DNA from: a virus
Lineage: Duplodnaviria > Caudoviricetes
DNA: 58,571 bases
Strand: one strand, 5' to 3'
IMG/VR virus record: IMGVR_UViG_3300036886_000519
Span: 1-58,571 of that record
The notes below the pieces were generated by a model. The model ran no database searches, was not told the DNA's origin, and was given only the letters and a program-made list of their open reading frames with translations. Below are positions 1,283 through 58,571 of this stretch, one piece after another. The position numbers and the translations under genes are program-made. Each line of letters begins with the position of its first letter. The stretch's first letter is position 1.

Positions 1283-1621
1283 TCAAGGCACCATCAGGGC
1301 ACTGATCAACGGTTGGAGCCAATTGCGATCGGCGCTGGCGCTGTAAGCCCTCCAGGTCTCGACTGCGGTTCTGATGCGGGCGATTTCGGCGTCGGTGAAC
1401 TCGAAGTCCTTCGTTGGAATCGACAGTGCCGGATTCCAGACGGTGCGCTCTTGGCCATTGACGAACTCGCGCTTGAGATCGATCATCTTTTCCTCAGCCG
1501 GATCGAGAGCGAGCTTGTCTTGCATCGCCCAGATCGCGCGAATGGAACCCACGTCTGCTCGCTGCACTCCCAAGAGCGCGTGCAGGTTCAGACGCTGGGT
1601 GTGGTCCAGCGTCAGTTTCAT
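1283..1621 (-). CDS. Hypothetical protein (possible tail-fibre assembly chaperone)
   Basis: 112 aa ORF with AAGGA RBS directly after the last fibre-like gene; function from position only. Confidence 0.6.
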   Translation of the reverse strand: MKLTLDHTQRLNLHALLGVQRADVGSIRAIWAMQDKLALDPAEEKMIDLKREFVNGQERTVWNPALSIPTKDFEFTDAEIARIRTAVETWRAYSASADRNWLQPLISALMVP

Positions 1622-21901: not shown

Positions 21902-21928
21902 AAAGGACTCCTCCATGTAGCTGTTGAT

Positions 21929-27908: not shown

Positions 27909-28048
27909 AATCGCCCCTCCAGGATTCTCAACTCCGCCGACCAGTCCTTCAGCCCCAGGCACAGACCATGCACATCGGGATTGCCTGCCCGCAGCTCGCG
28001 CTCGATCGCCGCTATCTCCCGACGACAGTGATCAATGTCACGCTGCAA
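27905..28048 (-). CDS. Small hypothetical protein
   Basis: 47 aa ORF overlapping both neighbours. Confidence 0.45.
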   Translation of the reverse strand: MQRDIDHCRREIAAIERELRAGNPDVHGLCLGLKDWSAELRILEGRL

Positions 28049-29294
28049 CTGGCTGTCGCTCAGCGCTGATGTCGCCGAAGCTTCTTCCATCGCCATCGAG
28101 CGTCGCCTCCTTGCCGCTGAATTCCTGGAAGCGCCGGCAGATTACGTCGCAGTACTTCGGCTCCAGTTCGATGAGCCGCGCCTGGCGGCCGGCCTTCTCG
28201 CACGCGATCAGCGTGGTTCCAGAGCCGCCAAACGGATCGAGCACCGTGTCACGGCCCTTGCTGCTGTTCCTGATGGCGCGCTCGACCAACTCGACCGGCT
28301 TCATCGTCGGGTGCAGGTCGTTGACGTGCGGTTTCTTGATGAACCACACGTCGCCCTGGTCGCGGGCGCCGCACCAGAAGTGCTGCGTGCCTTCCTTCCA
28401 GCCGTAGAGGATCGGTTCGTATTGGCGCTGGTAGTCGGATCGCCCCATCGTGAAGGTATTCTTCGCCCACACGACAAACGTGGACCAATGGCCACCCGCA
28501 TCGCGGAACGCCTTCTGCAGCGTGTGGATCTCTGACGAGGACATGCAGACGTAGATTGCGCCCTTGGTGACAGCCAGCATGTTCACGCAGGCGTCGCGCA
28601 GAAACTGCTCGAAGTCTTCGCCGAGGTCGTCGTTTTTGATTGGCCGTGCTTTCCCGCGGAGCTTATCCTTCATCGTCGCCCCGTAATTCACGTTGTACGG
28701 TGGATCGCAGAAGACCATGTCGGCCAGGCCGCCGGCCAGCACCTTCTCGACGATTTCCATCTGCGTCGAGTCCCCGCAGAGTAAGCGATGGTCGCCCATG
28801 ATCCACACGTCGCCAGGCACTGTGACCACAGCAACCTGCGTCTCGGGGACAGCGTCTTCGTCGGTCAGACCCTCTGTGGTCTCCTCGTCGCCGGCCAGAA
28901 TCGTTTCCAGTTCCTCTTGGGAGAACCCGATCAGGTCGAGATTGAACCCACTGACCTCGAGGTCCTGCAACTCGATGCGCAGCATCTCCTCGTCCCATCC
29001 AGCGTTGAGCGCGAGCTTGTTATCTGCCAGCACCAGCGCGCGCCGCTGCGCTTCGGTCAGATGGTCGAGGACGATCACAGGTACCTCGGTCATCCCGAGC
29101 TTGCGGGCTGCCAACAGGCGGGCGTGGCCGGCGATAATGATCCCATCGCTGCCGGCCAGGATTGGCGAGGTCCACCCGAACTCGGCGATCGACGCCGCGA
29201 TCTGGGCGACCTGCTCGGCACAATGAGTGCGGGCATTCCGGGCGAAAGGAATCAGTTTCTCGACCGGCCACGTCGCCACCTGTAGGTTCGTCAT
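28038..29294 (-). CDS. ParB-like N-terminal domain + N6/N4 DNA methyltransferase
   Basis: NARTH..IAASIAEFGW..IIAGHARLLAA; DPPY; HPTMKP; DPFGGSGTT. Confidence 0.93.
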   Translation of the reverse strand: MTNLQVATWPVEKLIPFARNARTHCAEQVAQIAASIAEFGWTSPILAGSDGIIIAGHARLLAARKLGMTEVPVIVLDHLTEAQRRALVLADNKLALNAGWDEEMLRIELQDLEVSGFNLDLIGFSQEELETILAGDEETTEGLTDEDAVPETQVAVVTVPGDVWIMGDHRLLCGDSTQMEIVEKVLAGGLADMVFCDPPYNVNYGATMKDKLRGKARPIKNDDLGEDFEQFLRDACVNMLAVTKGAIYVCMSSSEIHTLQKAFRDAGGHWSTFVVWAKNTFTMGRSDYQRQYEPILYGWKEGTQHFWCGARDQGDVWFIKKPHVNDLHPTMKPVELVERAIRNSSKGRDTVLDPFGGSGTTLIACEKAGRQARLIELEPKYCDVICRRFQEFSGKEATLDGDGRSFGDISAERQPVAA

Positions 29295-29566
29295 GCGTTG
29301 TTGGGGTGCGTGGATTTCTGGAACAGGCCCAGCGCATTGTGCAGATCGACGATCCTGGCGATCATCGGCACAACCACGCTCAGCAGTTTTTCCCAACTGA
29401 ATTGCTTTGCCAGGTCCGCACTTGCGTCGAAGCCGGACTTGACCACGTCGAGCACGAGTTCCAGTTTCTTGTTGCCCTGGCCAGGCAGCGGGATCGCTTG
29501 CTCGACCGCCTGGACGGCTGCCAGGACCAGGGGGAAGATTCGGAGAATGATGAGTAGAGTGTTCAT
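29291..29566 (-). CDS. Holin-like protein (LL-H-type pattern)
   Basis: Hydrophobic N-terminus, AVQAVEQ..GQGNKK..IVDLHN pattern. Confidence 0.5.
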   Translation of the reverse strand: MNTLLIILRIFPLVLAAVQAVEQAIPLPGQGNKKLELVLDVVKSGFDASADLAKQFSWEKLLSVVVPMIARIVDLHNALGLFQKSTHPNNA

Positions 29567-30237: not shown

Positions 30238-31860
30238 TTAGGAAGCCTGACGGCTCCCGTAGAAGGGCGCCGGACCGTGATGCTGAATCCGGCGTGAATC
30301 ACGAAGCCGGGGATTGTCGACCTGCTCCTGCGGTACGCCGCGCGCAGCCGCGACCTCCGAAAGGGGCTGCCCAGTTTCCGCGAGAACGGCTCCCTCGCCG
30401 GCGAGGTTCGCCATGCGCCGCAGGATCACATCGCAGTAGGCCGGACTGATCTCGCACCCGTAGCCGACCCGGGCAAGCACGTGCGCGGCCGCCATGGTCG
30501 TTCCGCTCCCCATGAACGGATCGAAGACGATGTCGCCTGCGTCGGAAAATGCCTTGATGAAGAACTCGGGCAGCGCTCGAGGGAATGGCGCAGAGTGCGA
30601 TCCCTGAGTGCTCTCTGTTGTAGCCTCGATCACGTTGCTCGGCCGCGCAAGGCCCTCATGCCTGCCGTCCATCAGTTTGCGACGCATGTGGCCCCATCCC
30701 TCTGATCCTTGTGGAGGCGACGAGGCTGCTGTCCCACGCGGGCCCGTCCCCAGCAGCCCGCTCCCGGAGTTCGATTTCGGGTTGTCTGGCGAGTAGTCGA
30801 AGCAATCGTCTGAGGGGTGACTCACCGCATCCACACGGAACTTGATTTGCTGCTGGCGGCAGAAGTGGAAGATCGGCTCGAACGCGTTCTTGAAGCGGTT
30901 GCCCCAGCCGCCAGGCACACCGTTATCGGTTTTGCGCCAGCAGAATTCGTCAACAAATCGCCAGCCCCACTGCCGCCGGTGGGCTAACACCAGGTCCATC
31001 ACGTATAGATTCCGCTCGCCTTCATCGGCGTGCGCCTTGATGTTCAGGAAGTAGGATCCGTCCGGTGTCAGCACCGACTCGACGCCGGCCGCCACAGCAC
31101 GGAACCACTCCACGTACTCCTCGGGCGGCACCGGCTTGAACCCGCTCGACGGGTCGTACTCGCGCTGCGTGGCGTAGGGCGGGGACGTGATCGCCACGTT
31201 CGCGCTGGCGCCGGCCATCAACTTCTCGACGGCGGCCTGGTCCCGGCAGTCGCCACAGATCAGACGGTGCGGCCCGATCAACCACACGTCCCCAGGCATC
31301 GTAACCGGCTGCGCGGGAGGTTCCGGAGCCGGTTCCTCCTCGGCGCCGGCGGCTGCCTCTGGTTCCTCGCCGGCCAGCAGCACGCGCAACTCCTCGTCGG
31401 AAAACCCCACCACCGCCAGATCGAACCCATCCATCTCGAGCGACTGCATCTCCTCACGGAGCGTCGCCTCGTCCCACCCCGCGTTCAGCGCCAGCTTGTT
31501 GTCGGCGATTACAAGGGCCCGTTTCTGCGCCGGCGTCAGGTGCGCCAGCACGATGACGGGGACCTCGTCCATCACCAGCTTGCGGGCGGCCAGAAGCCGC
31601 GCGTGGCCGGCGATGATGACGCCTTCGCCGTCCACCAGGATCGGATTCACGAAGCCAAACTCGACGATGGACGCCGCGATCTGCGCTACCTGCTCCGGAG
31701 AGTGAGTCCGCGAGTTCCGGGCGTACGCCAGGAGTCGGCCGGCGGGCCAGATCTCGATGCGCCGCGCCATGGCGGGCGTAATGGCTGCAGGAAGTGTTGC
31801 CATCTGTTGAGGGGCCCTTCGGCCAACCGTGTCGAACACCGGCGCGGCCAGGGTGACCAC
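30238..31860 (-). CDS. ParB-like N-terminal domain + N4/N6 DNA methyltransferase
   Basis: NSRTHS..IIAGHARLLAA; SPPY; HSAPFP; DPFMGSGTT; start may be 31803. Confidence 0.92.
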   Translation of the reverse strand: MVTLAAPVFDTVGRRAPQQMATLPAAITPAMARRIEIWPAGRLLAYARNSRTHSPEQVAQIAASIVEFGFVNPILVDGEGVIIAGHARLLAARKLVMDEVPVIVLAHLTPAQKRALVIADNKLALNAGWDEATLREEMQSLEMDGFDLAVVGFSDEELRVLLAGEEPEAAAGAEEEPAPEPPAQPVTMPGDVWLIGPHRLICGDCRDQAAVEKLMAGASANVAITSPPYATQREYDPSSGFKPVPPEEYVEWFRAVAAGVESVLTPDGSYFLNIKAHADEGERNLYVMDLVLAHRRQWGWRFVDEFCWRKTDNGVPGGWGNRFKNAFEPIFHFCRQQQIKFRVDAVSHPSDDCFDYSPDNPKSNSGSGLLGTGPRGTAASSPPQGSEGWGHMRRKLMDGRHEGLARPSNVIEATTESTQGSHSAPFPRALPEFFIKAFSDAGDIVFDPFMGSGTTMAAAHVLARVGYGCEISPAYCDVILRRMANLAGEGAVLAETGQPLSEVAAARGVPQEQVDNPRLRDSRRIQHHGPAPFYGSRQAS

Positions 31861-43908: not shown

Positions 43909-44769
43909 CTATCGGCGGGTGCGCAACTTGGGGTCTGTGCGCAGGATTCCTTCTATACGCTTTGATTTGCTGGACTTGTTGCCCAGCGTTCCCTTCATCC
44001 ACTTGTAGAAATCCGACTTGTGGACGCCGGCGTCTTCGAAGATGACCTGGTCGGTGCAGTTGAAATCGCTCTTGTACTTCTCAACCACCGCGTGCCGCTG
44101 CTCGACCGGAGTTGGCGTGATTTCGTCCGCGTCGGTGATCTCCAAGGCAACAAAGCGGCCGTCTTCCGAAAGCCCAACCCGCTCCTCCATTGAGATGAAG
44201 TCGCTATGGCGCCGGGCCAGGGTCTCACGCAACTCGACCGTCAGGTGATTGCTCGTGGGCGCGACGGCCACGAACGGTGTAGTGCACGAGAGCGCCAGCT
44301 CGCGAAGGGCGGACCGGAAGTCGTCGCGCCGGGCAAAAACCAGCAAAAAGACCGGATGATTCCGCGTGGCGCGGCTCGTCGAAAGCCCCAGTTCCCAAAC
44401 GCCGTGCGCCCTAACTTGCAGATTCTGGGTCCGGACGCAAAGCCCCTCCACTATTGGTCGCACCAACGCTCCGATGTCCAGCGTGCAGACGAGTGCGTCC
44501 TTGGGTGCCAGAGGCACGTCATCGCAGAGCTTGTGAGGGTGTCTGCAGATGGCGGCGAGCGTCCCATCTCCGTACTGAACGATCCTGCGCGGGCAGTCAT
44601 GATCGCGGGGATGGGGGCAAGGGTACGTCGCGCCGATATCTTCGGTCGGCCGCAGGTGGGGACGGATCAGCGGGAATTCAGTGCCACAGAAATGTTCCCA
44701 GTAGGCCGGAATCGCGGCGAGGCCTGGAACGCTCTCAATCCCCTGCCAAAGCCGCGTCAGCTTGCGCAT
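43909..44769 (-). CDS. Hypothetical protein with Cys cluster and C-terminal HTH
   Basis: CPHP..C..C..C near N-terminus; DQVIFEDAGVHKSDFYKWMKG. Confidence 0.7.
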   Translation of the reverse strand: MRKLTRLWQGIESVPGLAAIPAYWEHFCGTEFPLIRPHLRPTEDIGATYPCPHPRDHDCPRRIVQYGDGTLAAICRHPHKLCDDVPLAPKDALVCTLDIGALVRPIVEGLCVRTQNLQVRAHGVWELGLSTSRATRNHPVFLLVFARRDDFRSALRELALSCTTPFVAVAPTSNHLTVELRETLARRHSDFISMEERVGLSEDGRFVALEITDADEITPTPVEQRHAVVEKYKSDFNCTDQVIFEDAGVHKSDFYKWMKGTLGNKSSKSKRIEGILRTDPKLRTRR

Positions 44770-45919
44770 CGTGGGCGGTCTCCTCGGTAAGGACGAACCC
44801 GCGAGCGCGCAGCCAGTCCTCAATCACCATTGCCTCTTCGCCGCGGTTGTAGCCGGATTTGTTGCCGGCTTTGATAGTGACCGTTCGGGGCTTCTTTTCG
44901 CCCTCCAGCTTGATCTTGAAGACCGCCTTGCGGATGTGTGGTTCCGTTTCGATGTCCCTCTGGATCAGCGCCAACGCATGAAACAGGCCTTCGGCGCGAT
45001 GAATTTCTACGTGTTCAAAGGCGCCGCCCCAGGAGTATTCAACCTCCCGAAGGTTCACTGAATCCAGCCCGGAAATGTCGCGGCAGTTCAGGGATGCGCG
45101 GCCATCCTTCTTGAGCGGCTCGAGAGTGTACTTTTCGATGAACACGAACCGGTCTTCCCCGCCGAAAATGTGGCGGCCAAAAAGCGCGCGGTACTCGCGC
45201 ACGTCTGCGAACGCCGACGCGTTGATGCGGAGTTCGTTGTGGACGACGTCGTAGATCACTACGTCCGTCTTCTCAGGGCGGAAGAATGTCGACGTCGATC
45301 TGGGACCCTTCCGACTCGGCTCGCGCTTGCACGGCTGTCCATGCTCGATGAGGAACCGGACCTCACCGGCAGAGTCCTTTCGAGTAACGCGGCATCCAGC
45401 GCCACGCTTCTTCGCCAGAAAGTAAGCGTCGAGCGATTCCTCCAACGCCGACAAGTCCGCCGGCAGGTCGTCGATGGCGATAACCTCTTCCGGGTTGGCC
45501 GCACGGAAGCTCTCAAAGGATTTCCGTTTCTGGAAGAACTCCTCATGCTCCTTCCTTTCCAGCGCCTCGGGGTTCTTGAGCCAAATCTGGGTGGCCAGAT
45601 CCAGCGCCGTGACTTCACCGTCTGAATCAATCTGGCTTGCCACCGCCATGTCCAGCAACTCATCAAAGCGCCCGTCCGAGCCAAGGCTGCCGATCAAGTG
45701 CAGCGCTTCGACCAAATCTCCCGGCATTTCCTCGTCTGGCTGGGCGAGGATGCCTCCGAGCGCCGTAGCGTCGATTTCCTGATCCGCGCTGGATGGAAGG
45801 GAGAAGCCCTTCATTTCCAGGAACAGTCGGAAAGGTTCGAGCAAAGGGATCAAATTCGCAGGTTGGATCTTCTTCAGAAGGTCTGGCTGCGCAAAGCTTT
45901 TCAGGTTGAATCGGGCCAT
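44735..45919 (-). CDS. Conserved-looking hypothetical protein
   Basis: 394 aa from ATG 45919 with GGAGGT RBS; overlaps next gene by 35 nt. Confidence 0.75.
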   Translation of the reverse strand: MARFNLKSFAQPDLLKKIQPANLIPLLEPFRLFLEMKGFSLPSSADQEIDATALGGILAQPDEEMPGDLVEALHLIGSLGSDGRFDELLDMAVASQIDSDGEVTALDLATQIWLKNPEALERKEHEEFFQKRKSFESFRAANPEEVIAIDDLPADLSALEESLDAYFLAKKRGAGCRVTRKDSAGEVRFLIEHGQPCKREPSRKGPRSTSTFFRPEKTDVVIYDVVHNELRINASAFADVREYRALFGRHIFGGEDRFVFIEKYTLEPLKKDGRASLNCRDISGLDSVNLREVEYSWGGAFEHVEIHRAEGLFHALALIQRDIETEPHIRKAVFKIKLEGEKKPRTVTIKAGNKSGYNRGEEAMVIEDWLRARGFVLTEETAHDAQADAALAGD

Positions 45920-46009
45920 CGTGGGCCACCTCCCAAGGGTGTTTTGGCTGTAGCGGCAGGCCAAGGGGGGAATGTCATGACCCGGAGTACAACTCCACAG
46001 CGTAGCATG

Positions 46010-46026
46010 GCGAACAAACAGCGAAT
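46010..46026 (-). promoter_or_regulatory. LexA-box-like direct repeat (GTTC-N7-GTTC type) for the leftward operon
   Basis: Minus strand ATTCGCTGTTTGTTCGC overlapping TTGATT and just above TGcTACGCT. Confidence 0.55.
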
Positions 46027-46121
46027 CAAAATCACCAGCCATGTTGCTGAAAACGTGATAAATCGAGTTCTTGCCAAAGGGCCCCTGTGGATTATTTAGG
46101 CGACCCCTCGCCTATTTTTCC

Positions 46122-46150: not shown

Positions 46151-46239
46151 GCGAGTTGGCCGGGTGGATCTTCCAGCGGTGAAATCCGCCTTATGCTAGG
46201 CTGCCGGGTTGGTCGGATGGAAGGACGTTCTCAGTGGCG

Positions 46240-47370
46240 ATGCGAAGCACAGTCTTCTTTGAAATCCAGCAGCCTCCATCGAAGGTGAAGTCGCTGATAG
46301 CGAGCCAGTACTTCAAGGCCTGGGCAATGGTCATGACGGGAACGAAGTCGAAGGAGTCGAACGTCGGTTACATCGATCTCTTTGCGGGCCCAGGAATGTT
46401 CGACGACGGCTCCGAATCAACACCGATTCTGATCCTCAAAGATGCCATCGGCACCGACAGGATCAAGCACAGCCTTTGGAGCTACTTCAACGACCGGGAC
46501 CAGGGCAACATCGATTCGCTCCGCCGCGAGATCAGTAGCCTCGCTGGAGTCGAATGTCTTGTCCACGAGCCTGGCTTCAACTGCGAGTTGGTCTCGCCGG
46601 CAATTGCTGATTACCTCCGTGCATATTCTCTGAGGCCCACCTTCGTTTTCGCCGACCCTTTTGGCTACGTGGGCATATCCCTCCAACTCCTGGACCGGCT
46701 ACTGAAGCACAAGAAAAGTGAATTGCTGGTTTTCTTCAATACGAATCGTATCAGCCCCGGCGTCGCAAACCCGTTCGTGAAGGAGCACATTGACGCGCTG
46801 TTCGGCGTCGAGAGGGCAGCAGCCGTGCGCCAGAGGGTAAGGGATCTCCACGGTCTCGATCGTGAGGAGGCTGTCCTCGACAGTTTCGAAGAGGCTATGC
46901 GCAATGGTGGATTTGCTTACATCACCCGATTCCGCTTCGCAAGCATGTCGCAGCACCGGACCAGCCACCATCTGATCCACTGCTCGAGGCACCCGAAGGG
47001 CGAGGAGATAATGAAGGACATCATGGCCCGCCACAGCCATAAACGTCCTGATGGGGTCGCTACATTCGAGTTCAAGAAACAGACGATTCAGCGCTCACTT
47101 TTTGACCAGGAGGCTGGTTATACTGAACCGCCGGAGGAACTGGCTGAGGCCATCCTCAGGGTTTTTGCAGGCAGGACAATGACTCTCGCAGAAGTTTGGC
47201 GTGCGCATGCTCACGGCACGAACTTCGTCGAGCGGAACTATCGGGAGGCCTTGCTTTATTTGGAGGCTCAGGGAAAGATCAGCGTTGAGCCGCCGTCGGC
47301 CGTCCGCGGCACTCGAAACGGGCAACAGGTCTGGGGAAGCGACACAAGAGCCAGATTCCCGCGACAATAG
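46240..47370 (+). CDS. tcmP: Three-Cys-motif partner protein (SAM-dependent methyltransferase fold, C-terminal wHTH)
   Basis: YIDLFAGPG, FADPFG, YREALLYLE; adjacent to DUF5131. Confidence 0.85.
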   Translation: MRSTVFFEIQQPPSKVKSLIASQYFKAWAMVMTGTKSKESNVGYIDLFAGPGMFDDGSESTPILILKDAIGTDRIKHSLWSYFNDRDQGNIDSLRREISSLAGVECLVHEPGFNCELVSPAIADYLRAYSLRPTFVFADPFGYVGISLQLLDRLLKHKKSELLVFFNTNRISPGVANPFVKEHIDALFGVERAAAVRQRVRDLHGLDREEAVLDSFEEAMRNGGFAYITRFRFASMSQHRTSHHLIHCSRHPKGEEIMKDIMARHSHKRPDGVATFEFKKQTIQRSLFDQEAGYTEPPEELAEAILRVFAGRTMTLAEVWRAHAHGTNFVERNYREALLYLEAQGKISVEPPSAVRGTRNGQQVWGSDTRARFPRQ

Positions 47371-47388
47371 AACAGAGAGGGGTGCACC

Positions 47389-48135
47389 TTGGGCTTACGC
47401 TCAGAGATCGAGTGGACGGAATCAACCTGGAACCCTGTCACGGGCTGCACGAAAATCAGCCCTGGCTGCAAGCACTGTTACGCCGAGCGGATGGCCAAGC
47501 GGTTGCAGGCGATGGGGCAGAAGAACTACGCAAACGGCTTCGAGTTGACGTTGCAGGATCACACGGTCGAATTGCCTTTGCGATGGAAGAAACCCCAGAC
47601 CGTTTTTGTGAATTCGATGAGTGATCTGTTTCACGAAGATGTTCCTGTTCACTTTATCAAGAGGGTCTTCGATGTCATGAATCGCGCCTACTGGCACCGC
47701 TTCCAGGTACTAACGAAAAGGTCCGAACGACTGGCAAAGATCGACGGAGAACTGGAATGGGCACCGAACATCTGGATGGGCGTAAGCATCGAGCTCGACA
47801 AATACTGCGCTCGCGCATCCGATCTTCGCAGCACTGGGGCGCACGTGAAGTTTCTTTCCTTGGAGCCCCTATTGGGACCATTACCTAGCCTCGATCTTTC
47901 AGGGATCAACTGGGTCATTGTCGGCGGCGAATCCGGACCAGGCGCCCGTCCGATGGACCAGACGTGGGTGACGGCTTTGAGGGATCACTGCACTCACGTC
48001 CAGGTGCCGTTCTTCTTCAAACAATGGGGTGGAGTTGTCAAGAGCCGGACCGGTCGTTCGCTTGACGGCCGCACATGGGACGAGATGCCCGATGAGGATC
48101 TCGCTCCCGAAGAAGCACTGCGTATTCTGGCGTAG
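47389..48135 (+). CDS. DUF5131 (phage Gp37/Gp68) radical-SAM-like protein
   Basis: [54 protein letters not shown]. Confidence 0.93.
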
Positions 48136-48223: not shown

Positions 48224-51200
48224 TTACGCGGGTGCCCCTACCACCTCGACAACCTCAGCGATCACCCGCACCTGCCCTTCGTCCGTACCACTCAGGATGA
48301 TCGGCGCGAAATCGGGATTAACGGGTTTCAGAGTGATCCTCGTGTGGCGCCAGGACTCGCCGGCCTTCGCCTTCTCGCTATCGTAGCGCTTGACGGTGTA
48401 GCGCTCGCCGGTCTCCGAGTCCGTGGCGTCACGCAGTTGGACGAGGACGGTCTTGCCCTGGCGGGTGCCGGTGACCGGGGCGGCGAAGAGGCAGTAGGAG
48501 CCGTCGGGAATGGTGGGCTCCATCGACTTGCCGACAATCTGGGCGACGAACATGCCCGGGCGCAGGCGGTGCCGGGTGTCGACGGCGACCCACTCCCAGC
48601 CTTCGTCCTCGACGTGCTGCGGATCGCCAAAGGCGCCCGCGGCGGCCTTGAGCGGCAAGAGTGGCACGCAGGTTATGTAGCGCTCCTCGGGTCGGCCTCC
48701 AGCGAGCCGCAGCCCAGACGGTAGTGCCCCAGCAGGCAATACCGAGGCTCCTGCTCGCGGAGCGCTCTGCAGTCGTCGATAAGCCTCTGCCGCCATCCAT
48801 GTGGTCACAATCTTCTGGAACGGCTCGTCGTTCATGAACCGGACGAAGATCTCCTCGTTCTGATCCATGCGCTCGACGAAGAGCCTGTCCAGCAGATTCT
48901 TAAACACCAACTCGAACTTGTCCTCCGGGTTCACCGCGGCGGCCTGCCGCAGCCCCTCGTCGGCAACCGCCGCCTGGACGATTTGATCGAAGAAGAGCTG
49001 GTCGGCTTGGTTGAAGTCCGTGCCGAACCGCTCGTTGACGATCTCGATGAGCTGCGAGAGCGGCACCGGTTGTTCCCGAACCAACCCGCTGCCTACCTCG
49101 GTGGGACCGTCCAGGGGGCGCGCGCTGCCGTCCTGCAGCGAGATCGAGCCCTCGCTGATCTTCTGGAGGCGGTAGTACTCGAGTCGCACCTCATCGTCGA
49201 ACAGGTAGGCCGCCCCACCCCTCCGTCGCGGCAGCTTCGCCGAAAGATGGCGCAGAAACACGTACAGGCGCTCAAGGTCCGAGTCCTGATAAGGGACCAC
49301 TTGGCTCAGGAAGCCATAGAGGTTGCGAAAAGCCAGTACTTTCCCGCGCCACAACTCCGCCTCCTCCTCGTTGTCCCTCTGGAGCACTGTGAACCGCGAT
49401 ACCGCGGGATCGAGCGCCGCATTCATAGCCTGATGATCCTGCGCACTCTGGCGCTGCCTGGGCTTGAAGTAAACGGTGCAGAAGCGTTCGACCTCCTCGC
49501 CGAGGTAAACGCCCGAAGCATCCAGCTCCGCCCTGATGGCGTACATGCGCGCGGGATCGACCTCTTCGCCCATCTCAGCGCCTTCGTAGAACGTCTTGAA
49601 CGCCTCCCTGATCTCCTCGCGATCGTTGACAAAGTCGAGAACGAATGTGTCCTCCTTGAGAAGGTGGGTCCGGTTCAGCCGTGAGAGCGTCTGCACGGCC
49701 TGGATGCCCGCGAGCCGCCTATCCACAAACATCGTGTGCAGGAGCGGCTGGTCGTACCCGGTCTGGTACTTCTCCGCCACCAGCAAGACGTGGTACTCCT
49801 GTGTCGCGAACTTCTCCGGAAGCTCCTTCTCGCGAATGCCGAGGTTCATCCTCTCCTCGGTGTAGGTCACGTCCGGGAGCTTGTCGTCCAACACCGTCCC
49901 AGAGAAGGCAACCAGTGTCTTAATCGGGTAGCCCTTCTCCTGGATGTAACGGTCAAAGCTCTGCTTGTAGCGCACGGCTTCCAGGCGCGAGCCAGTGACT
50001 ACCATGCCCTTGGCCCGACCGCCGATCTTGTGCCGAGTGACCGCCTGGAAGTGCTCGACCATGACCTGGGTTTTCTGGGCAATGTTGTGCGGGTGCAGGC
50101 GCATGAAGCGGGCGAGCGCCCGCGCGGCCTTCTTGCGCTCGACGTTGGGATCGTCCTCACAGGCCTTGAGCAGCTTGAAGTAGGTCGCGTAGGTCGTGTA
50201 GTGCTTGAGGACGTCGAGGATGAACTCCTCCTCGATCGCCTGGCGCATGGTGTAGCGGTGGGTTGGCTGTCCGTCGCGCCCGAACACCGCGAGCGTCTTG
50301 TGCTTGGGTGTGGCGGTGAAGGCGAAGAAGCTCAGGTTCGCCTGCCGGCCGCGCTTGGCCATACTGCGAAAGAGCTCTTCCATTTCATCGCAACCTTCCT
50401 CTGCCGCGCGCTTGTTCGCTTCTTCCCGTAAGCCCTCGCCGCCGAGGACTTCCTTGAGGTCGGTGGCGGACTCGCCGCCCTGCGAACTGTGGGCCTCGTC
50501 GATGATCACAGCACGACGCCGCGTTGGCAGAGCACCAGCCCCATTCGCACCCTTCTCCTCAGCAATCTTACGCATCTGGCGCAACACCACCGGGAACTTC
50601 TGAAGCGTCGTGATAATGATCGGCACTGCCTTCTCGAGTGCCTCGGCGAGCTGTCGCGAGCTCTCGTCGATCTTCTGCACCACACCGCGCTTGTGCTCGA
50701 ACTGGTAGATCGTGTCCTGGAGCTGTTTGTCGAGCACCACGCGGTCTGTCACCACGATCACGCTGTCGAAGACCCGCTCGTTGGCCATGTCATGGAGACA
50801 GGCGAGGCGGTGCGCAAGCCAGCCGATCGTGTTGCTCTTTCCACTTCCAGCCGAGTGCTCGACGAGATAGTTGTGCCCCACGTCCTCCCGCCGGGCCGAG
50901 TCGACCAGCAGGCGGACGGCCTCGAGCTGGTGGTAGCGGGGGAAGATCATCGACTCGACGTTCACTTTGCGCCCCTGGTCGTCGCGCTTCTCTTCAATCT
51001 GCAAATGCATGAAACGCGCCAGGAGATCAAGAAAACTGTCTCGCTGCAGCACCTCTTCCCAAAGGTATGCCGTGCGGTAGGTGCGCCCGGCAGGATCGGG
51101 AGGGTTGCCGGCGCCGCCGTCGCAGCCCTTGTTGAAGGGCAGGAAGTGCGTCGCCCCGCCGGCTAGCCGCGTGGTCATCAGCACTGACTCAGTATCGACG

Positions 51201-51775
51201 GCGAAGTGGACGAGAGTGCGCCGCTTGAAATCGAAGATCTGTTCCCGAGCGTCGCGGTCCTGCTTGTACTGCCGACGCGCTTCCTCGACGGTCTGGCCGG
51301 TGAGAGGGTTCTTGAGCTCCAGCGTAACGACGGGGATTCCGTTCAGGCTCAACGTGACATCGATCGACTTCTCCGAACGCGGCGAGTAGTGTAGTTGGCG
51401 GGTGAGCCCCAGGCGGTTCGCAGCATAGCGGGCCTCGAGTTCCGGGTTCAACCCGTGCGCCGCCTTAAAGAACGCCACATGGAGTGTCCGCCCGTAACAC
51501 TTGAAGCCGTGGCGCAGGGTAGCGAGGGACCCATTCACATCCATCCACTTGCACAGGTCGGTGAGGATCTGGTTGCCGGTCTTGTCGCCGTGCAGCGCCT
51601 CCAGTTTCGCCCACTCCTTTTGCTGCGTCTCTCGGATGAACGCCAGCACCGTCGCCGGGAAGATCGCGCGCTCACGATCGAAGCCTTCGCAGGCAACGCA
51701 CGCATACCCGTTCTGGAGTAGATGCGCCTCGATGACCGTCTCGAAGGCGCACTCCCAGTAGCGAGGCTCAATCAT
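48224..51775 (-). CDS. hsdR: Type I restriction subunit R with C-terminal S24 peptidase domain
   Basis: ELKN nuclease, [24 protein letters not shown]; then AAAG, GKSM, VKR. Confidence 0.93.
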
Positions 51776-52422
51776 GATCCCATCCTCATCAGTCGTTGCG
51801 CCAGCCACCAGACCGCTACCTGACAATAGGGAGCAAGGTGGCCACCGCCCGCGATGTACCGGTCTCGTTCACGCTCAAGCCGCGCTCGCGGCACCGGGCC
51901 ATGAGTTTTTTCCTTCTCGCGCTTCCACCATTCGGAAATGGCGGTGAGGACCCCTTTCCTGTTGTTCTTTAACAGGGGCAGGTTAAGATTCAGTACTACG
52001 TTCAACTGCGCATCGAACTCGGCATCGTCCGATTTGACCGAGCCATCGATCTCATAGCGCACGCGCGCCTCGATATGGTGTGCCGGGTCGGCGGGATTCC
52101 ACCGGAGATCGCGGTCACCCTTCCTCGTATCGCAATACTGGGAATCCCACGGCTGCCCCCTTCCACCCAGGCAGGCTCCGAGCAAATTGCGGTAGTTGAG
52201 CTGTTCGCCCGGGGAGCGGGATTGACTTCGCCAGTGCTCGATCTTCATGGTAGCTGGCCCGTCATGAACCCGTCCCAAGCAGTAGCAGCATAGCCCCCGC
52301 TGCTCGGCCACCAAAGCGTGCCTTAGGTCGTCCTTCTCCGCATAGTTGTCATAGTCGGAGTGCGGAGTGAGCCGATGCGTCGTCAGACTCGGCGGCTCGG
52401 GCCCCTTCGTGATCGCCCTCAT
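51772..52422 (-). CDS. HNH endonuclease (TIGR02646 / PtuB-like)
   Basis: [28 protein letters not shown]. Confidence 0.85.
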
Positions 52423-53672
52423 TCCTTACCCTCGATAAAGTCGAGGAGAGTTCGGGCACGTGTCACTTCTGGATCGTCTTCCCCGAGGCGGGCCGTTAAG
52501 GCGGCCAATAACTCGCGTGCGCGCTCGAAATGCTGCTTTCCGGTCTCCTGGGAGAGTTCTGAGAGCAGTTGGTTCACCTCCTGTGCTCGCGGGTCTGCAT
52601 GCATGATCTCCTCCAGCACCCGGCTGGAGTCGACGCCGAAGGAGTGGGTCGGCGAATAGACCTGGCCGTCCGCGATGATCTGGATCCGGTCGTGCTCCAC
52701 TTCACCGATGACCTGGGGCGAATGTGTCGTTGCGATGAACTGGCACCGGGGAAACGCTGTGGTCAGGTTGCGCACAATCTGCCGCTGCCACTTAGGATGC
52801 AGGTGCAGGTCGATCTCGTCGATGAGGACAACCGCCTCCGCCTCTGCGGCCGGATCCGCCATTGCCGGGTTGGCCTGCACCAGTCGGCGTGTCAGGTCGA
52901 GCACCAGAGCAAGCACGCCGCGCTCGCCATCGGAAAGCTGCCGCACGCGGAGCGTCCTGCTGCCCCGATCGATCAACAGCATCTGGCGATCCTCGCCACC
53001 CACACGCAGGTTGGCATAGCCTGGAAGGAACCGCGCCACGGCGTCCTCAAAGGCGGCGAGCGCACGACCCGCTACCGGACGTTCCGCCTTCAGTGCCTCC
53101 TGGACCCGCATCCAGGCTGAGAACTCTCCGAGCCTAAGCTCGCGGCTCGTGAACGCGTCCGCGAACGCCGCAGTGATTCCTCCGGCTGCCACGCTTTTTC
53201 TGGGAGTTCGCTCCCACGGTACTGCCCGACTGGTCGAGAAGAGGACCGCAAGAGGCCGCCCGCCGGGCTCGTTCCCGCTGACGGGTAAAGGCGGCGTGCC
53301 GATGTAATCAGCCTTTTCCGGTGTCTCGTGGACCTCCTTCCGCGGCATGCCTGCCATTTTCTCTTGGGCTGCGCTGGCCTCACGCGGTCTGTGGATTAGG
53401 TAGCGGTACTCCGTGTCACCGATCTGTACGCCGCACTCGACATCCAAGGCATCGGCTCCAACGCGAATATCGTCTGCGGTGAACGATTTGCCCGGTATCC
53501 GCAGCCGGTTCACGTCCTTGACGACCGCCAGCAAGCACACGCTAAGCGCGTCGAGCAAGCTCGTCTTGCCGACGCCGTTGACGCCCACGACCAGGTTGAA
53601 TCCGGGCTGGAATCGGAACTCAGCCGCGTCGATGGCCCGAAGGTTCGCGAGCTTCAGCGTAGTGGCTCTCAT
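52419..53672 (-). CDS. ABC-type ATPase (PtuA-like)
   Basis: GVNGVGKT, LSDGER, VLIDEIDLHLHPKWQ, ATTHSP. Confidence 0.88.
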   Translation of the reverse strand: MRATTLKLANLRAIDAAEFRFQPGFNLVVGVNGVGKTSLLDALSVCLLAVVKDVNRLRIPGKSFTADDIRVGADALDVECGVQIGDTEYRYLIHRPREASAAQEKMAGMPRKEVHETPEKADYIGTPPLPVSGNEPGGRPLAVLFSTSRAVPWERTPRKSVAAGGITAAFADAFTSRELRLGEFSAWMRVQEALKAERPVAGRALAAFEDAVARFLPGYANLRVGGEDRQMLLIDRGSRTLRVRQLSDGERGVLALVLDLTRRLVQANPAMADPAAEAEAVVLIDEIDLHLHPKWQRQIVRNLTTAFPRCQFIATTHSPQVIGEVEHDRIQIIADGQVYSPTHSFGVDSSRVLEEIMHADPRAQEVNQLLSELSQETGKQHFERARELLAALTARLGEDDPEVTRARTLLDFIEGKE

Positions 53673-54958
53673 GCGCCCCTCCCGACGTCGATTTGCCCGG
53701 TCACGGCTGCGGCGATGAGCGCGGAGCGGCGCTCCCTGAGCAGGGCGACCGTGCGCTCCGTCGCAGCACCTAGGGTGTCGAGCTTCGCAGTCTCCGAAGC
53801 AACATAGGCAACGATCTCCGATTGCTCGTCGGAAGAAGGAAGCGGTACCTCGATATCGCGGAAGCCCTCCCAGTAGAGCCGCAAACGGTCCCACACGATC
53901 CCGTGAGAACGCCGTGCGCACTCGGCGCTAAAGGCTGACGTCCTAAACAATAGACCCGCGTACGCCGACGACAACGAGCCTGCTGGCGCTGCGACGACAT
54001 AGTCCGGGCTGACGAGGCCGTCCTGAGGAGCAATGCCGACAGCACCCTGCCACATACGCATCTTGTTGAACGCGACGTCGCCCCGTCGAGCGATCTTGTA
54101 GGTGTTGAAATCTGCAGCGGTACTCTCGATTCGTTCATCGGAAAACTCGCGAAGCACTACCCCGGCGTTGATTGAAACCTCCAGCAACGGCAGGTCTGGT
54201 TCTCCGCGTTCGTCTCGCTCGCGGAAGAGCCATGCGACCCTGGACGTTTCCCAACGTGCAGGGATCTCACCAAGCCAGGGGATGCCGGAGTCGCGTAGCG
54301 GGGTGAGAGGGTCGATACCCCGGGTGACCGCGCACGTGATGATCGCCCGGCTCTTCTCGGCCAACAGCCCGAGCAGCCGTTCCTTCGCCGCCACCAGGGC
54401 ATCCAGACGCGCCGTCTCCCGCTCGAGGTAGTCGGCGATGACTCGTTGCAGCGAGATCGGTGGGGCAGGCAATACCATCGCCCCGATATCCGACTTCGGA
54501 ATCCCAAAACGCGTCACGCCATTCGCTGCCGCGAGCTCTAGCTGCACGCGCACAGGCTTTGCCTGGAGACAGCGGAACAAGAATGCTCCTGCCATCCGGC
54601 CTTGGTGCGGACGGAGAACCGCAAGGTGATAACCGCAGATCAGATCGTCGGCGGCCTCACGGACGAGCGCAGGCACGCCGATATCGTCCCAGGACTCGGA
54701 GTCCTTGGTAATAACGACATCGTCTACGGCTAGCCGAAACTTATGGATCTCGTCTTCAGTGGCGGTCGCCTGCATGAAGTCCAGATTGAGGTCGATGAAG
54801 TCATTGTTGTAGACGTCTGAGTAGTTGCAAAGGCGGATGGCAATTTCGTTGTCTGCCGGAATTTTGTCGACGTTACTAACGAGATAGTCGGCTACGGATC
54901 GGAGTGGCTTTGCCTCCCAGCCGTCGGGAAGCGTTTTCACCCACCCGAGGTGGCTCAC
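53669..54958 (-). CDS. hsdS: Type I specificity subunit S
   Basis: Two TRDs with conserved helices; DSGIPWLGEIP, RSALIAAAVTGQID. Confidence 0.92.
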   Translation of the reverse strand: MSHLGWVKTLPDGWEAKPLRSVADYLVSNVDKIPADNEIAIRLCNYSDVYNNDFIDLNLDFMQATATEDEIHKFRLAVDDVVITKDSESWDDIGVPALVREAADDLICGYHLAVLRPHQGRMAGAFLFRCLQAKPVRVQLELAAANGVTRFGIPKSDIGAMVLPAPPISLQRVIADYLERETARLDALVAAKERLLGLLAEKSRAIITCAVTRGIDPLTPLRDSGIPWLGEIPARWETSRVAWLFRERDERGEPDLPLLEVSINAGVVLREFSDERIESTAADFNTYKIARRGDVAFNKMRMWQGAVGIAPQDGLVSPDYVVAAPAGSLSSAYAGLLFRTSAFSAECARRSHGIVWDRLRLYWEGFRDIEVPLPSSDEQSEIVAYVASETAKLDTLGAATERTVALLRERRSALIAAAVTGQIDVGRGA

Positions 54959-56940
54959 TCCGTCACCTCCCGCAGCAGCCGCACGATCTCCTCTTCTGCC
55001 TGCTTCAGGTCAGTGTCGATCTCATCGAGCGGACGCGGCGGGCTGTACCTGTAGAAGTGGCGGTTAAAGTTGATCTCGTACCCCACCTTGTCCTTGCTGC
55101 GGTCCATCCAGGCATCTGGTATATGGGGCCGCACCTCTCGCTCGAAGTAGGCGTCAATGTCCTCTTTCAGGGGCACGTTCTCGAAATCGCGGAGTTCCGG
55201 GTCGGGCTCGAAGCCTTCGTTCCTACCGCCCTTGGCGGCCGGCTCGGCCTCGGAATCCTTGCACGTGAACACGCTGCGGAAAAGCCTTTGCTCTGCTTCC
55301 TTCCAGCGGGATCTGCGCCCCTGTAGCAAATCTTCGATGCGGTTCCATACCGCGTTCCAGCCCCGCTGAGGCTCCCGCCCGAGCGCCACGTCCACGGCCT
55401 GCACGTCGTCGAGCAGGTGCGGACAGGCGTCGAGAAAGCGGGCCTTGTCCTCAGAGGTCATCTGGTAACGCAGGCGTAGGGGCCGCTCGACGGTGACGCG
55501 GGTATAGCCGAAGTCGGCGTTGTCGAAGACCTTCAATCGCTCACCGTCTATTAAGCGGCCGTACAGCCGCACGATCTCGTCGATCTGGCTCGTCGTCATG
55601 TGCCGGCGCTTGTCGCCGAGGCTGCGTTTGCTCTCCTCGCTGCCACCGGGAGTCCAGATGTCGCGGCCATCAAGGAGCTGGATCTTGCCCTTGCGCCGCT
55701 TCTCCTTGCGGTTGGTGACAATCCAGATGTAGGTGCCGATTCCTGTGTTGTAAAACATCTGTTCGGGCAGGGCGATTACGGCCTCGAGCCAGTCGTTCTC
55801 GATGACCCACTTTCGTATGTTGCTCTCGCCCGAGCCCGCGCCACCGGTGAACAGTGGCGAGCCGCTGAAGACAATTGCCAGCCGCGAACCGTGCTTGCGT
55901 TCGGCCGGGCGCACCGTCTCAAACTTGCGAACCATGTGCTGCAGAAACAGCAGTGACCCGTCGTTCACGCGGGGCAGGCCCGCGCCGAAGCGGCCGGCGA
56001 AGCCAAACTTCTCGTGCTCCCGCTGGATCTCCTTCTGCTGCTTCTTCCAGTCCACGCCGAACGGTGGGTTGGTGAGAAAGTAGTCGAACGTCTCGCCTGC
56101 GAACTGATCCTCGGTGAAGCTGTCGCCGAAACGAATGTGATTCGTGCCGCCGTTCTGGTCCACCTCCTTCATTAGCATGTCGGAAGCGGCGGTAGCGAAG
56201 GCGCGCTTGTTGTAGTCCTGCCCGTAAACGTATAGCCGGGCCGCGCTGTGGTGTTCTCGCAGGTAGTTCTGGGCCTCAGCCAGCATGCCGCCGGTGCCAC
56301 AGGCCGGGTCGAGCAGCGTTCGCACGGTGCCGGGGGTGGCGAGCAGTTCGTCGTCGCGGATGAAAAGGATGCTCACCATCAGGCGGATGACCTCGCGCGG
56401 AGTGAAGTGGTCGCCCGCAGTCTCGTTGGCAAGCTCATTGAAACGCCGGATGAGGTTCTCGAATATGAGCCCCATCTGCGGGTTCTTCACTCTCTCCGGG
56501 TGCAGGTCCACGTCGCAGAACTTGGACACAACGAGGTAGAGGATGTTCGCCTCGCCCATCTTCTCGACCTCGTTTTCGAACTCGAAGTACTCGAAGATGC
56601 GGCATACGTTGGCCGAAAACCCCTTGATGTAGCTGACGAGGTGCTGACCGATGTGGTCAGGATCGCCCTTCAGTCTCTCGAAGTTGAGCGGCGAGTGGTT
56701 GTGGAACCGCTGGTTCGCCGCCTTGTTGAGCTTGGCGTCCAGTGCCTCGCCTTTCAGCTTGCTTCCCCACCGTTCGTGTTCGGCCAGGACCTTGCGCTTC
56801 GTGGGCGCAAGCACGCAGTCGAATCGGCGCAGTACGGTCATGGGCAACATGACTCGCTCGTACTGCGGCGGGCGGTACGGGCCACGCAGTAGGTCGGCGA
56901 TTTGCCAGATCAGGTTTGCAAACGAATTGTGATCAGACAT
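54955..56940 (-). CDS. hsdM: Type I methyltransferase subunit M
   Basis: IWQIADLLRG, HFTPRE, DPACGTGG, NPPF, GYEINF. Confidence 0.95.
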   Translation of the reverse strand: MSDHNSFANLIWQIADLLRGPYRPPQYERVMLPMTVLRRFDCVLAPTKRKVLAEHERWGSKLKGEALDAKLNKAANQRFHNHSPLNFERLKGDPDHIGQHLVSYIKGFSANVCRIFEYFEFENEVEKMGEANILYLVVSKFCDVDLHPERVKNPQMGLIFENLIRRFNELANETAGDHFTPREVIRLMVSILFIRDDELLATPGTVRTLLDPACGTGGMLAEAQNYLREHHSAARLYVYGQDYNKRAFATAASDMLMKEVDQNGGTNHIRFGDSFTEDQFAGETFDYFLTNPPFGVDWKKQQKEIQREHEKFGFAGRFGAGLPRVNDGSLLFLQHMVRKFETVRPAERKHGSRLAIVFSGSPLFTGGAGSGESNIRKWVIENDWLEAVIALPEQMFYNTGIGTYIWIVTNRKEKRRKGKIQLLDGRDIWTPGGSEESKRSLGDKRRHMTTSQIDEIVRLYGRLIDGERLKVFDNADFGYTRVTVERPLRLRYQMTSEDKARFLDACPHLLDDVQAVDVALGREPQRGWNAVWNRIEDLLQGRRSRWKEAEQRLFRSVFTCKDSEAEPAAKGGRNEGFEPDPELRDFENVPLKEDIDAYFEREVRPHIPDAWMDRSKDKVGYEINFNRHFYRYSPPRPLDEIDTDLKQAEEEIVRLLREVTE

Positions 56941-57282: not shown

Positions 57283-57765
57283 TCACATGTATGGTGAACA
57301 ACCGCTATTGTCTCTCACAGACGGACTCGGATGCATTGGTTGGACGTCGTTCCACAACTTGCGCTGGCGGATCCAAACGACTTGAGCACAGATGCTGCGT
57401 AAAAAGCGTTCATTGAGCCCGGAAATTGCACCCTCCGGCGAGAGCAGGTGCTCCTGGATGTCGGGAGCGAGCATGAGCAGATTCATGATTTGGGTGATCC
57501 TGGCCCGTGTCACGTACCCGAGTCGCGCCAGGTCTGCGTAGTCGCGGACTTCTCCACGCTCGACCATCTCCTGGAACTTGATGGCGAGGGCCATCAGTCT
57601 GGTAATCCGAGGAATTCGCGGGCGATCGCCCGAGTTGCTGAACGGGTCGTGCTGCGTTCTGCTGCCCTCGCGGCGACACTGGCGCACTGGCAGCGTCACC
57701 TCCACCTGAATGGCCCCGTCCGCGCGCGGACCTGGGCCGGCCATGGTCAGCACTTTCCTTGGCAT
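57283..57765 (-). CDS. HTH protein associated with serine recombinases
   Basis: LMALAIKFQEMV..YADLARLGYVTRARITQIMNLLMLAPDIQE. Confidence 0.8.
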   Translation of the reverse strand: MPRKVLTMAGPGPRADGAIQVEVTLPVRQCRREGSRTQHDPFSNSGDRPRIPRITRLMALAIKFQEMVERGEVRDYADLARLGYVTRARITQIMNLLMLAPDIQEHLLSPEGAISGLNERFLRSICAQVVWIRQRKLWNDVQPMHPSPSVRDNSGCSPYM

Positions 57766-58571
57766 AGTTCCTTGGCTCCTGTGTTGCTGAAATTGACGGT
57801 GACTTTGCCGGTCCGGCCGTCGTAGCCGACCTTGGCAACCAGCAACTGGATCATCTGCTCCTGCTCCTTGGTCGTCAGGGAGGACCAGATGGCGTCGAAC
57901 TCAGCCAGTATCCGGCGGAGGTCCTCCGCATTGATGTGGTCCGTGTCGAGGTCGCCACGCTCGGCGGTGAGCTCCACCAACCGGCGCTCCGTGGTCTCGA
58001 TCTCGCGCTGAAGAGTAGCCATCCGCTCGAACCGCGCGCCGGAGTCCACGCTGGTATCCGCCGCTTCTCGCGCGAGGTTCTGGTTGAGCTGCCGGAGGCT
58101 TCGCCGTTGGGCTTCCGACTCCTGGTCAATCTCCCGCCGCCGGCGCGCCACCTGGTTGAGAGCTTCGGTGGCGACTGCCTCGGCCAGTTTGGGGTCGGTC
58201 CCAATGCGGCGGATGCTGTCAAGGACGGCAGATTCGATCGCCTGGGCCGGAACGGACTTCGTTTCGCAGTTCTTCCATCCCTTCTGCTGAGCGTTGTAGC
58301 AGACGTAGTAGCGGTAGCGTTTGGACTTCCGCATCGTGTAGGTGTGCATCATGGGGGTCTCGCAGGGCACGCAGAAGAGCAGGCCGCGCAGCAGGGCGCC
58401 GAACTTGTTCTTGAGGCTGGCGCCGTTGTCGCCATTGTTGCGTCGTAGAGTTTCATGGACTCGATCCCAGGTATTCTGCTCGATGATTCGCTCATGCTCC
58501 CCTGGGTACAGGCAGCCTTTGTGGTCCACCATCCCGGTGTAGATGGCATTGGTGAGGACCCCGTGCATCGT
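57747..58571 (-). CDS. Large serine recombinase, C-terminal part (5' truncated by window)
   Basis: LTNAIYTG..GEHERII recombinase domain; LRGLLFCVPC..YYVC..C zinc ribbon; coiled coil. Confidence 0.9.
   Translation of the reverse strand, partial: TMHGVLTNAIYTGMVDHKGCLYPGEHERIIEQNTWDRVHETLRRNNGDNGASLKNKFGALLRGLLFCVPCETPMMHTYTMRKSKRYRYYVCYNAQQKGWKNCETKSVPAQAIESAVLDSIRRIGTDPKLAEAVATEALNQVARRRREIDQESEAQRRSLRQLNQNLAREAADTSVDSGARFERMATLQREIETTERRLVELTAERGDLDTDHINAEDLRRILAEFDAIWSSLTTKEQEQMIQLLVAKVGYDGRTGKVTVNFSNTGAKELCQGKC

Follow-up and report, generated by a model that had tools for sequence, protein, structure and literature searches.

HsdR and the question raised by its tail

What might a domain of the kind found in LexA be doing at the end of a restriction enzyme? 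The question is raised by IMG/VR virus record IMGVR_UViG_3300036886_000519 (Duplodnaviria; Caudoviricetes), whose 58,571 nucleotides were analysed over their full length (the window). On its minus strand the record encodes HsdR, the restriction subunit of a type I restriction-modification (RM) system, and the protein continues past the HsdR end into a tail of the S24 type known from LexA, UmuD and lambda cI. We refer to the fusion as HsdR::S24. An earlier note on this DNA had proposed that the tail is an intact self-cleaving S24 domain and that restriction might thereby be switched in the SOS response. In the following sections we examine the identity of the tail, its conservation, its distribution over HsdR and other proteins, and the readings of its function.

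The tail of HsdR is a LexA-type S24 module

Pfam recognised Peptidase_S24 (PF00717) at residues 1087-1193 of the protein (E = 1.5e-7; 31.5 bits against a gathering threshold of 23.3), and in a six-frame scan the match of the tail to this family reached 35.6 bits. Residues are numbered here from a TTG at position 51826; for the form that starts at the ATG discussed below, 17 is to be subtracted. We aligned the tail with 27 short relatives (alignment A2, 28 sequences) and used A2 as a profile against PDB sequences, which retrieved 22 sequences at E ≤ 1, all of them LexA, lambda cI or UmuD. The best of these was the C-domain of Mycobacterium tuberculosis LexA (E = 7.1e-4), with GkSM of the profile aligned on GDSM, and tvKrY on TVKTF, of that protein.

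The predicted structure points in the same direction. An AlphaFold2 (AF2) model of the last 168 aa, built on A2, had a pLDDT of 91.5 and a pTM of 0.86, and Foldseek gave 29 PDB matches to it at E ≤ 1e-3, led by LexA C-domains (best E 1.3e-5). By VIA-align the best structural matches were all LexA, cI or UmuD', with signal peptidases next at Z below 7. They include Thermotoga maritima LexA (3k2z_A; Z 12.8, root-mean-square deviation (rmsd) 3.1, 130 residues aligned), Escherichia coli LexA (1jhh_A; Z 12.2, rmsd 3.4, 126 aligned, residues 13-166 of the model lying on residues 69-198), lambda cI on the RecA filament (8gmu_A; Z 12.0, rmsd 2.9, 119 aligned) and UmuD' (1umu_B; Z 10.6, rmsd 3.6, 101 aligned); two further chains from RecA-filament structures, 8gms_A and 8trg_I, matched with Z of 11.6 and 10.9, respectively. 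Identity to LexA-type structures in these structural alignments was 16-25%. PADLOC matched 0 families when given the S24 module alone, and a complex prediction for two copies of the module (score 0.00, controls not run) returned no answer and is silent on dimerisation.

The module thus shares with LexA, lambda cI and UmuD its fold (Z 10-12.8 over 100-130 residues), the order of cleavage-site strand, Gly-x-Ser-Met and Thr-Val-Lys, an Ala-Gly pair that follows an Ala (...AA↓G; E. coli LexA cuts at VAA↓G), and a position C-terminal to the part that it would regulate. It differs from these proteins in its N-terminal partner, which is a nuclease-motor of ~1000 residues where they have a small domain that binds DNA, or an arm of 24 residues, and in that its self-cleavage is predicted from sequence. 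Compared with LexA, it has longer hairpins around the Lys strand and carries an extra conserved N-terminal strand (LRLxxxxPEERYxTC).

The catalytic residues and the cleavage site are conserved

We counted conservation over 271 domain rows drawn from relatives of the tail and aligned to the hidden Markov model of A2; denominators are the rows that have a residue at the position concerned. The predicted nucleophile, Ser1101, is kept in 262 of 264 rows and the predicted general base, Lys1146, in 258 of 261. Around the predicted scissile bond, P1 (Ala1063) is Ala in 247 of 249 rows and P1' (Gly1064) is Gly in 237 of 249, being otherwise Ser (8) or Thr (4). The preceding positions are also restricted: Ala at P2 in 245 of 249 rows, Leu at P5 in 237 of 246, and at P3, among 247 rows, Ala in 200, Val in 36 and Ile in 6. 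The resulting consensus of the site is VPLvPLK(A/V)AA↓GAF(G/S)DP, and residues 21-166 of the model align to E. coli LexA residues 75-198/200.

Both the catalytic apparatus and the cleavage site appear to be under selection, and by its conserved Ser-Lys dyad and Ala-Gly site the tail is predicted to be a catalytically intact LexA-type S24 module. Pfam, AF2, Foldseek, VIA-align and conservation agree with the earlier note, which had recognised an intact LexA/UmuD-type domain in the Ala-Gly pair, the Ser of VGKSMEP and the Lys of TVKR; all three are in frame with HsdR, and the coordinates given for them were accurate.

The HsdR core is complete and its tail is optional

HsdR::S24 is encoded by an open reading frame (ORF; 48224..51826, minus strand) of 1200 codons from the TTG, with no internal stop. 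We take the ATG at 51775 as the likely start, giving 1183 aa, because it overlaps the stop of the upstream ptuB gene as ATGA (the sequence near 51775 is ATCATGATT) and because a database copy, P0002, is 1183 aa long. The HsdR part is judged complete from its motifs, since it has the nuclease domain (Pfam HSDR_N at residues 135-223, E = 3.2e-14) with its motif D...ELK (residues ~157-173) and the SF2 motor motifs GSGKS (327), DEAH (443) and TATP (504). Pfam further places SWI2_SNF2 (1e-24) and ResIII (2.4e-11) at residues 296-540 and T1R_D3-like at residues 667-721, and the REase_I models of PADLOC match at 5.4e-30. The score against NCBIfam TIGR00348 (hsdR), 185.2 bits, is under the curated cut-off of 284.55, so the protein belongs to a divergent HsdR family.

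To place the tail within this family, we used residues 1-1000 as a query and took the best 120 matches, which are 85-100% identical to the window's core. The S24 module is present in 89 of them, in proteins of 1170-1196 aa, and absent from 31, in proteins of 1006-1037 aa. These 31 are ~160 residues shorter and stop 10-25 unrelated residues past a common ...WMA(S/A)EAYRRL. The supposition that the tail follows a normal HsdR end and a linker is borne out by this comparison, in which the S24-less relatives, 85-87% identical, end at just that point. On a FastTree phylogeny of the cores, presence and absence of the tail require at least 16 changes, a count that tree error at such core similarity may inflate; in 200 shuffles the number averaged 27.5 and never fell below 22. 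Presence of the tail is clustered on the core tree, yet the tail has been gained or lost repeatedly. Judged from these comparisons, the S24 tail appears to be an optional, portable regulatory add-on to HsdR. As alleles with and without it (89 against 31) are otherwise little different, they offer natural controls, and ideas about its function are directly testable.

The module is carried by other defence enzymes

We searched with residues 1030-1200 among 4471 candidate proteins of 660-2100 aa, and found that 1727 match the tail at E ≤ 1e-3. The best 120 of these matches are 71-100% identical to it. Among the other 119 of the best 120, 84 have an HsdR core like that of the window (80-89% identical) and 35 have a different core, which in the members scanned (P0005, P0122, P0123, P0127 and P0128) is N6_Mtase-Eco57I-Type_ISP_C. 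A pattern scan of metagenome contigs gave 598 matches, of which 458 encode a relative; the 80 loci that were kept comprise 44 of HsdR type with the same junction, 20 of ISP type, and 16 that are other or too short. At one locus (L062) the module sits on an HsdR merely 26% identical to the window's.

A single-protein scan of named genomes gave 6 loci, and named records with the module are metagenome-assembled genomes (MAGs) from Elusimicrobia, Bifidobacteriaceae, Nitrospirales, two Acidobacteria and Oceanococcaceae. The names borne by HsdR::S24 proteins proper include MAGs of Trueperaceae, Accumulibacter, Acidobacteria, Gammaproteobacteria and Sterolibacteriaceae; in three cases the NCBI name is 'DEAD/DEAH box helicase family protein', which hides the S24 feature in those records, and in one case it is 'type I restriction endonuclease subunit R'.

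These counts bear on the possibility that HsdR::S24 arose as an artefact of assembly or gene calling, or is a one-off fusion in decay, for which we found nothing in support and which we consider negligible. The frame is open over 1200 codons, the 84 proteins with the same core are full HsdR::S24 fusions from independent assemblies, the junction recurs in over half of the metagenome loci kept, the named MAGs span several phyla, and the catalytic residues are conserved. Counted over long tail matches, nearest cores and metagenome matches alike, the combination of HsdR and S24 is no one-off, a point on which the earlier note had made its proposal depend.

A wider range of partners was found with HMMER, by which the 168-aa tail was compared with 1.84 billion representatives (1920 matches at E ≤ 1e-3, 1128 at ≤ 1e-10 and 191 at ≤ 1e-30). 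Of the best 150 representatives, the 82 with a length of at least 240 aa were put through Pfam, and S24 was found in 79. The partner domains in these 82, counted for the first 25 of 41 families, include Type_ISP_C (12), ResIII (9), Eco57I (6), HTH_31 (5), MZB (5), DEAD (4), HTH_3 (4), N6_Mtase (4), SLFN-g3 helicase (3), SWI2_SNF2 (3), RE_endonuc (3) and HTH_25 (3), with two each of T1RH-like_C, PLDc_2, AlbA_2, MmeI_Mtase, HNH_4, nSTAND_NTPase5 and TnsA-like, and one LlaJI. Layouts were confirmed for one MmeI-like enzyme, two DEAD-Helicase_C-MZB helicases of ~1900 aa, two Schlafen-type helicases and one methyltransferase-HNH protein. The partners HTH_31, HTH_3 and HTH_25 indicate that the subfamily also includes the classical HTH repressor layout. 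In 245 of 270 proteins the module ends at most 25 residues from the C-terminus. What the earlier note overlooked is this wider setting: the tail is a portable module found on unrelated defence enzymes, and within the HsdR family it is optional.

The ISP-type carriers, of ~1300 aa, form a second large family (loci L024, L032, L035-L038 and L075-L078), and some bear as their Joint Genome Institute label solely 'SOS-response transcriptional repressor LexA'. Between the HsdR-type and ISP-type families the module is 72-79% identical, and on the module tree the two types are clean groups separated by 1 change (support 96). Frequent swapping of S24 between the two kinds of enzyme is ruled out by this tree; the module has stayed with each enzyme family.

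Two departures from the usual layout were seen. In a Bifidobacteriaceae MAG a frame of 1507 codons (L003:2581-7101) has the S24 module internally, followed by ~200 more residues. At other loci (L070:8920-9507, L061, L073, L074 and L081) stand-alone open frames of 186-247 codons hold little beyond the module; the 195-aa form at L070 has as neighbours a cyclase-AAA_16-TPR protein, an acyltransferase and a radical SAM protein, with no obvious defence partner among them.

Possible restriction alleviation by self-cleavage, and its alternatives

To the reading that the module provides built-in restriction alleviation, through self-cleavage of HsdR stimulated by RecA filaments on single-stranded DNA (RecA*), which is the one that we favour, we give an even chance of being correct. 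On contact with such a filament the module would cut its own chain between Ala1063 and Gly1064, as LexA, lambda cI and UmuD do, and would so split an HsdR of ~118 kDa ending in ...PLKAAA from a tail of ~15 kDa. The Ala-Ala C-terminus left on HsdR would resemble the ClpX signal on the N-terminal fragment of cleaved LexA, and the cleaved HsdR might be degraded by way of this degron; alternatively, HsdR without its S24 tail might no longer form the two-R complex needed for cutting. Either way restriction would drop while methylation goes on, and unmodified sites left by repair and recombination would be protected. What ClpXP or Lon-like proteases accomplish in trans for other type I systems, HsdR::S24 would accomplish in cis. 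The VAA detail of the ClpX signal on cleaved LexA reportedly comes from work by Neher et al. in 2003.

The components of such a mechanism have published parallels. ClpXP removes HsdR of types IA and IB in damage-induced restriction alleviation, and alleviation in type IC works by assembly control (PMC3874165, PMC12707154, PMC4231737). In Pseudomonas aeruginosa, HsdR is inactivated by Lon-like proteases (10.1101/2024.10.21.619520). Cleavage of LexA exposes latent ClpX signals (PMC10584840), and in ssrA-like degrons the terminal Ala-Ala is described as critical and an upstream Leu as favourable (PMC10862746). By analogy with these cases we infer a protease-degron step in HsdR::S24. As in ClpXP-dependent (EcoKI-type IA/IB) and P. 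aeruginosa Lon-like alleviation, HsdR would be removed post-translationally when the chromosome is at risk, and modification would be kept; in those systems an external protease acts on a translocating or heat-stressed enzyme, whereas in HsdR::S24 the sensor and the protease would be built in.

Several points weigh against this reading, and the chief of them comes from the other carriers. The module also sits on effectors that lack a methylation partner, namely Schlafen-type helicases, HNH and PLD proteins and a STAND-like NTPase, and a pure alleviation reading is weakened for that reason. Such effectors (the SLFN-g3 and DEAD-MZB helicases, the HNH and PLD proteins and the STAND-like NTPase), having no methylation mark to tell self from non-self, would need an infection signal, and they bring in the opposite switch, in which the S24 tail would keep the enzyme inactive or sequestered until RecA filaments on replication or recombination intermediates of the phage trigger cleavage and free an active effector. 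This would resemble the conversion of UmuD to UmuD', which is itself among the structural matches, and the conserved catalytic residues and cleavage site would serve activation as well. We nevertheless regard activation as unlikely. HsdR is already under self/non-self control by the hsdM and hsdS of its coupled operon, and the 31 of the 120 nearest HsdR proteins that have no tail imply that the core needs no release from one to be a normal member of its family. Damage in the absence of phage would, moreover, unleash restriction on a chromosome that is gaining unmodified sites, and the known type I systems do the opposite (PMC3874165, PMC12707154).

A second group of points concerns the trigger. 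Used as a single sequence, the tail gave 0 phmmer matches at E ≤ 1 among PDB sequences. In sequence it resembles solved S24 proteins weakly. Its beta-hairpins are longer than those of LexA, so that its docking on RecA may differ from that of LexA. The LexA-like protein IrvR cleaves itself independently of RecA (PMC7101444). This precedent, together with the divergence from LexA seen in the low structural-alignment identity and the phmmer result, and with the extended hairpins, would suit a trigger other than RecA*, such as a protein of the phage, a cue from local pH or conformation (for example stalled translocation) or slow constitutive maturation, with the tail either cleaving or just binding in response, or else a role mainly in oligomerisation or RecA docking to which cleavage would be secondary. 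We find this family of explanations doubtful, as every one of the closest solved relatives responds to RecA* and the subfamily contains HTH-S24 proteins of SOS-type repressor layout; a mainly structural role is further opposed by the near-invariant Ser, Lys and Ala-Gly, which imply that cleavage itself has been selected, not binding alone.

The remaining objections to alleviation by RecA*-stimulated cleavage are directed at its later steps and its setting. A terminal Ala-Ala alone is insufficient for recognition by E. coli ClpXP (PMC10862746), and the Ala-Ala before the scissile bond may reflect the substrate preference of the protease and not a degron. Phages could turn an off-switch that responds to RecA* to their advantage. 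The record is the 58.6-kb provirus alone, and the RecA, ClpX and LexA of the host lie outside it.

Relation to known systems

Both things that HsdR::S24 would join, autoproteolytic switches of the S24 type and restriction alleviation by proteolysis, are already known in kind. How the cell's own DNA is spared by its restriction enzymes after damage and recombination has been worked out for few type I systems (ClpXP, Lon-like proteases, assembly control), and a LexA-type tail that cleaves itself would offer a new answer that is self-contained. We also put forward, more tentatively, the broader idea that the tail represents one case of a portable 'DNA-damage fuse', acting post-translationally, on at least half a dozen unrelated defence classes (type I HsdR, Type ISP-C/IIG, MmeI-like, DEAD-MZB helicases, Schlafen-type helicases, and HNH and PLD nucleases), all of which RecA filaments would switch by self-cleavage; this is possible, though we would not presume it. 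If it is true, part of the defence arsenal is under SOS control at the protein level, independently of transcription.

Searches of the full-text literature, mostly outside subscription journals and without supplements, and of two RM reviews turned up no account of S24 domains on HsdR or other defence enzymes, though an earlier mention is possible. Neither LexA nor S24 occurs in the 2025 EcoSal RM review, and in the 2013 NAR review of type I systems lexA occurs solely in the title of a reference. A hit for 'S24' in the Millman preprint proved to be Table S24 and not the domain. The occurrence of S24 on many defence enzymes suggests an undescribed way to switch immunity on DNA damage, and so bears on how immunity is wired to the DNA-damage response.

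Operon and prophage context

The gene for HsdR::S24 is the last of a minus-strand operon of five, hsdM-hsdS-ptuA-ptuB-hsdR::S24, with a 4-nt overlap of start and stop at every junction (Table 1). The genes ptuA and ptuB resemble the Septu pair. A longer ORF for ptuA, with a GTG start and reaching 53921, is probably not used; the PtuA1 match begins at its residue 84. The ptuB-like protein has no Pfam match, and both proteins score below the NCBIfam cut-offs (PtuA 233.9 bits against 500; PtuB 84.3 against 150). Related HsdR::S24 loci in metagenomes have hsdM upstream in 16 cases; the gap between hsdS and hsdR holds ptuA and ptuB in 6 and elsewhere 1.6-4 kb of other sequence, so that the ptuAB slot looks like a variable cargo site within the type I operon. 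Type I RM operons with embedded defence cargo are known from arrangements of the PrrC/RloC type. Here, in contrast to those, the cargo is a translationally coupled Septu-like pair between hsdS and hsdR, and the hsdR downstream of it carries S24.

Table 1. Features of HsdR::S24 and its operon in the window (all on the minus strand; residues numbered from the TTG at 51826)
Feature	Coordinates	Strand	Residues	Basis
hsdM, type I methyltransferase, first gene	54955..56940	-		Pfam N6_Mtase 1.8e-52, HsdM_N 2.6e-24; PADLOC MTase_I 3.2e-257
hsdS, specificity subunit; GTG start overlaps hsdM stop (GTGA)	53669..54958	-		Pfam Methylase_S; PADLOC Specificity_I 1.2e-78
ptuA-like AAA/ABC ATPase (Septu); ATG overlaps hsdS stop (ATGA)	52419..53672	-		PADLOC PtuA1 1.5e-114; Pfam AAA_21
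ptuB-like HNH nuclease (Septu); ATGA overlap with ptuA	51772..52422	-		PADLOC PtuB1 1.6e-70
HsdR core: PD-(D/E)xK nuclease, SF2 motor, helical C-terminal region	48764..51775	-		Pfam, PADLOC, motifs
Variable 14-residue linker from HsdR core to S24 module	48722..48763	-	1022-1035	Differs among relatives
S24 (LexA/UmuD/cI-type) module, ~165 residues, including stop codon	48224..48721	-	~1036-1200	Pfam PF00717, AF2, Foldseek, VIA-align
13-residue cleavage-site motif	48667-48629	-	1054-1066	In frame with HsdR
Predicted scissile Ala-Gly, 37 residues before Ser1101	48635..48640	-	1063-1064	Family conservation
Predicted nucleophile Ser (VGKSMEP)	48524..48526	-	1101	Aligned to GDSM Ser, M. tuberculosis LexA
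Predicted general base Lys (YTVKRY)	48389..48391	-	1146	Aligned to TVKTF Lys, M. tuberculosis LexA

The window is an IMG/VR provirus record with an integrase, tail proteins, a head-protease fusion, a portal and a large terminase, and it also encodes a primase, a RecD-like helicase, ERCC4, AAA_24, a PD-(D/E)xK nuclease and two ParB-methylases. The earlier note had suggested that the switch operates during prophage induction. This link is weak: a six-frame Pfam scan of the window found no further S24 domain that could belong, for example, to a prophage repressor; scans of IMG/VR with the single protein and with a 6-sequence alignment found the module in no other contig, which is weak evidence as the pattern scans are strict; and tblastn did not find it in INPHARED phages. 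The prophage setting of hsdR::S24 looks incidental for these reasons. Among PLSDB plasmids there was one match, 42% identical, in a 1.8-Mb Halomonas replicon, and most carriers of the module are chromosomal or metagenomic.

Further genes lie around the operon. Convergent to hsdR::S24 is a pair on the plus strand (46234-48135), TcmP (three-Cys-motif partner) and DUF5131, which matches the candidate systems PDC-M30 and PDC-M41 of PADLOC (B component, E = 1.2e-119). Two overlapping minus-strand ORFs of 304 and 435 aa (43909-46042), which lie between the genes for phage replication and the defence island, have no match in Pfam, NCBIfam or PADLOC. The record has a tyrosine integrase at one end (255-1322, minus strand), and a serine recombinase gene (57747-58571, minus strand) runs off the other; the defence island may be part either of the prophage or of a neighbouring element. 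Besides the type I hsdM there are two fusions of ParB_N with an N6_N4 methyltransferase (28038-29396 and 30238-31860, minus strand). The head-protease fusion is a 694-aa protein (19832-21916, minus strand) that matches both a major head protein and a head maturation protease (PHROG 4523, E = 4e-203).

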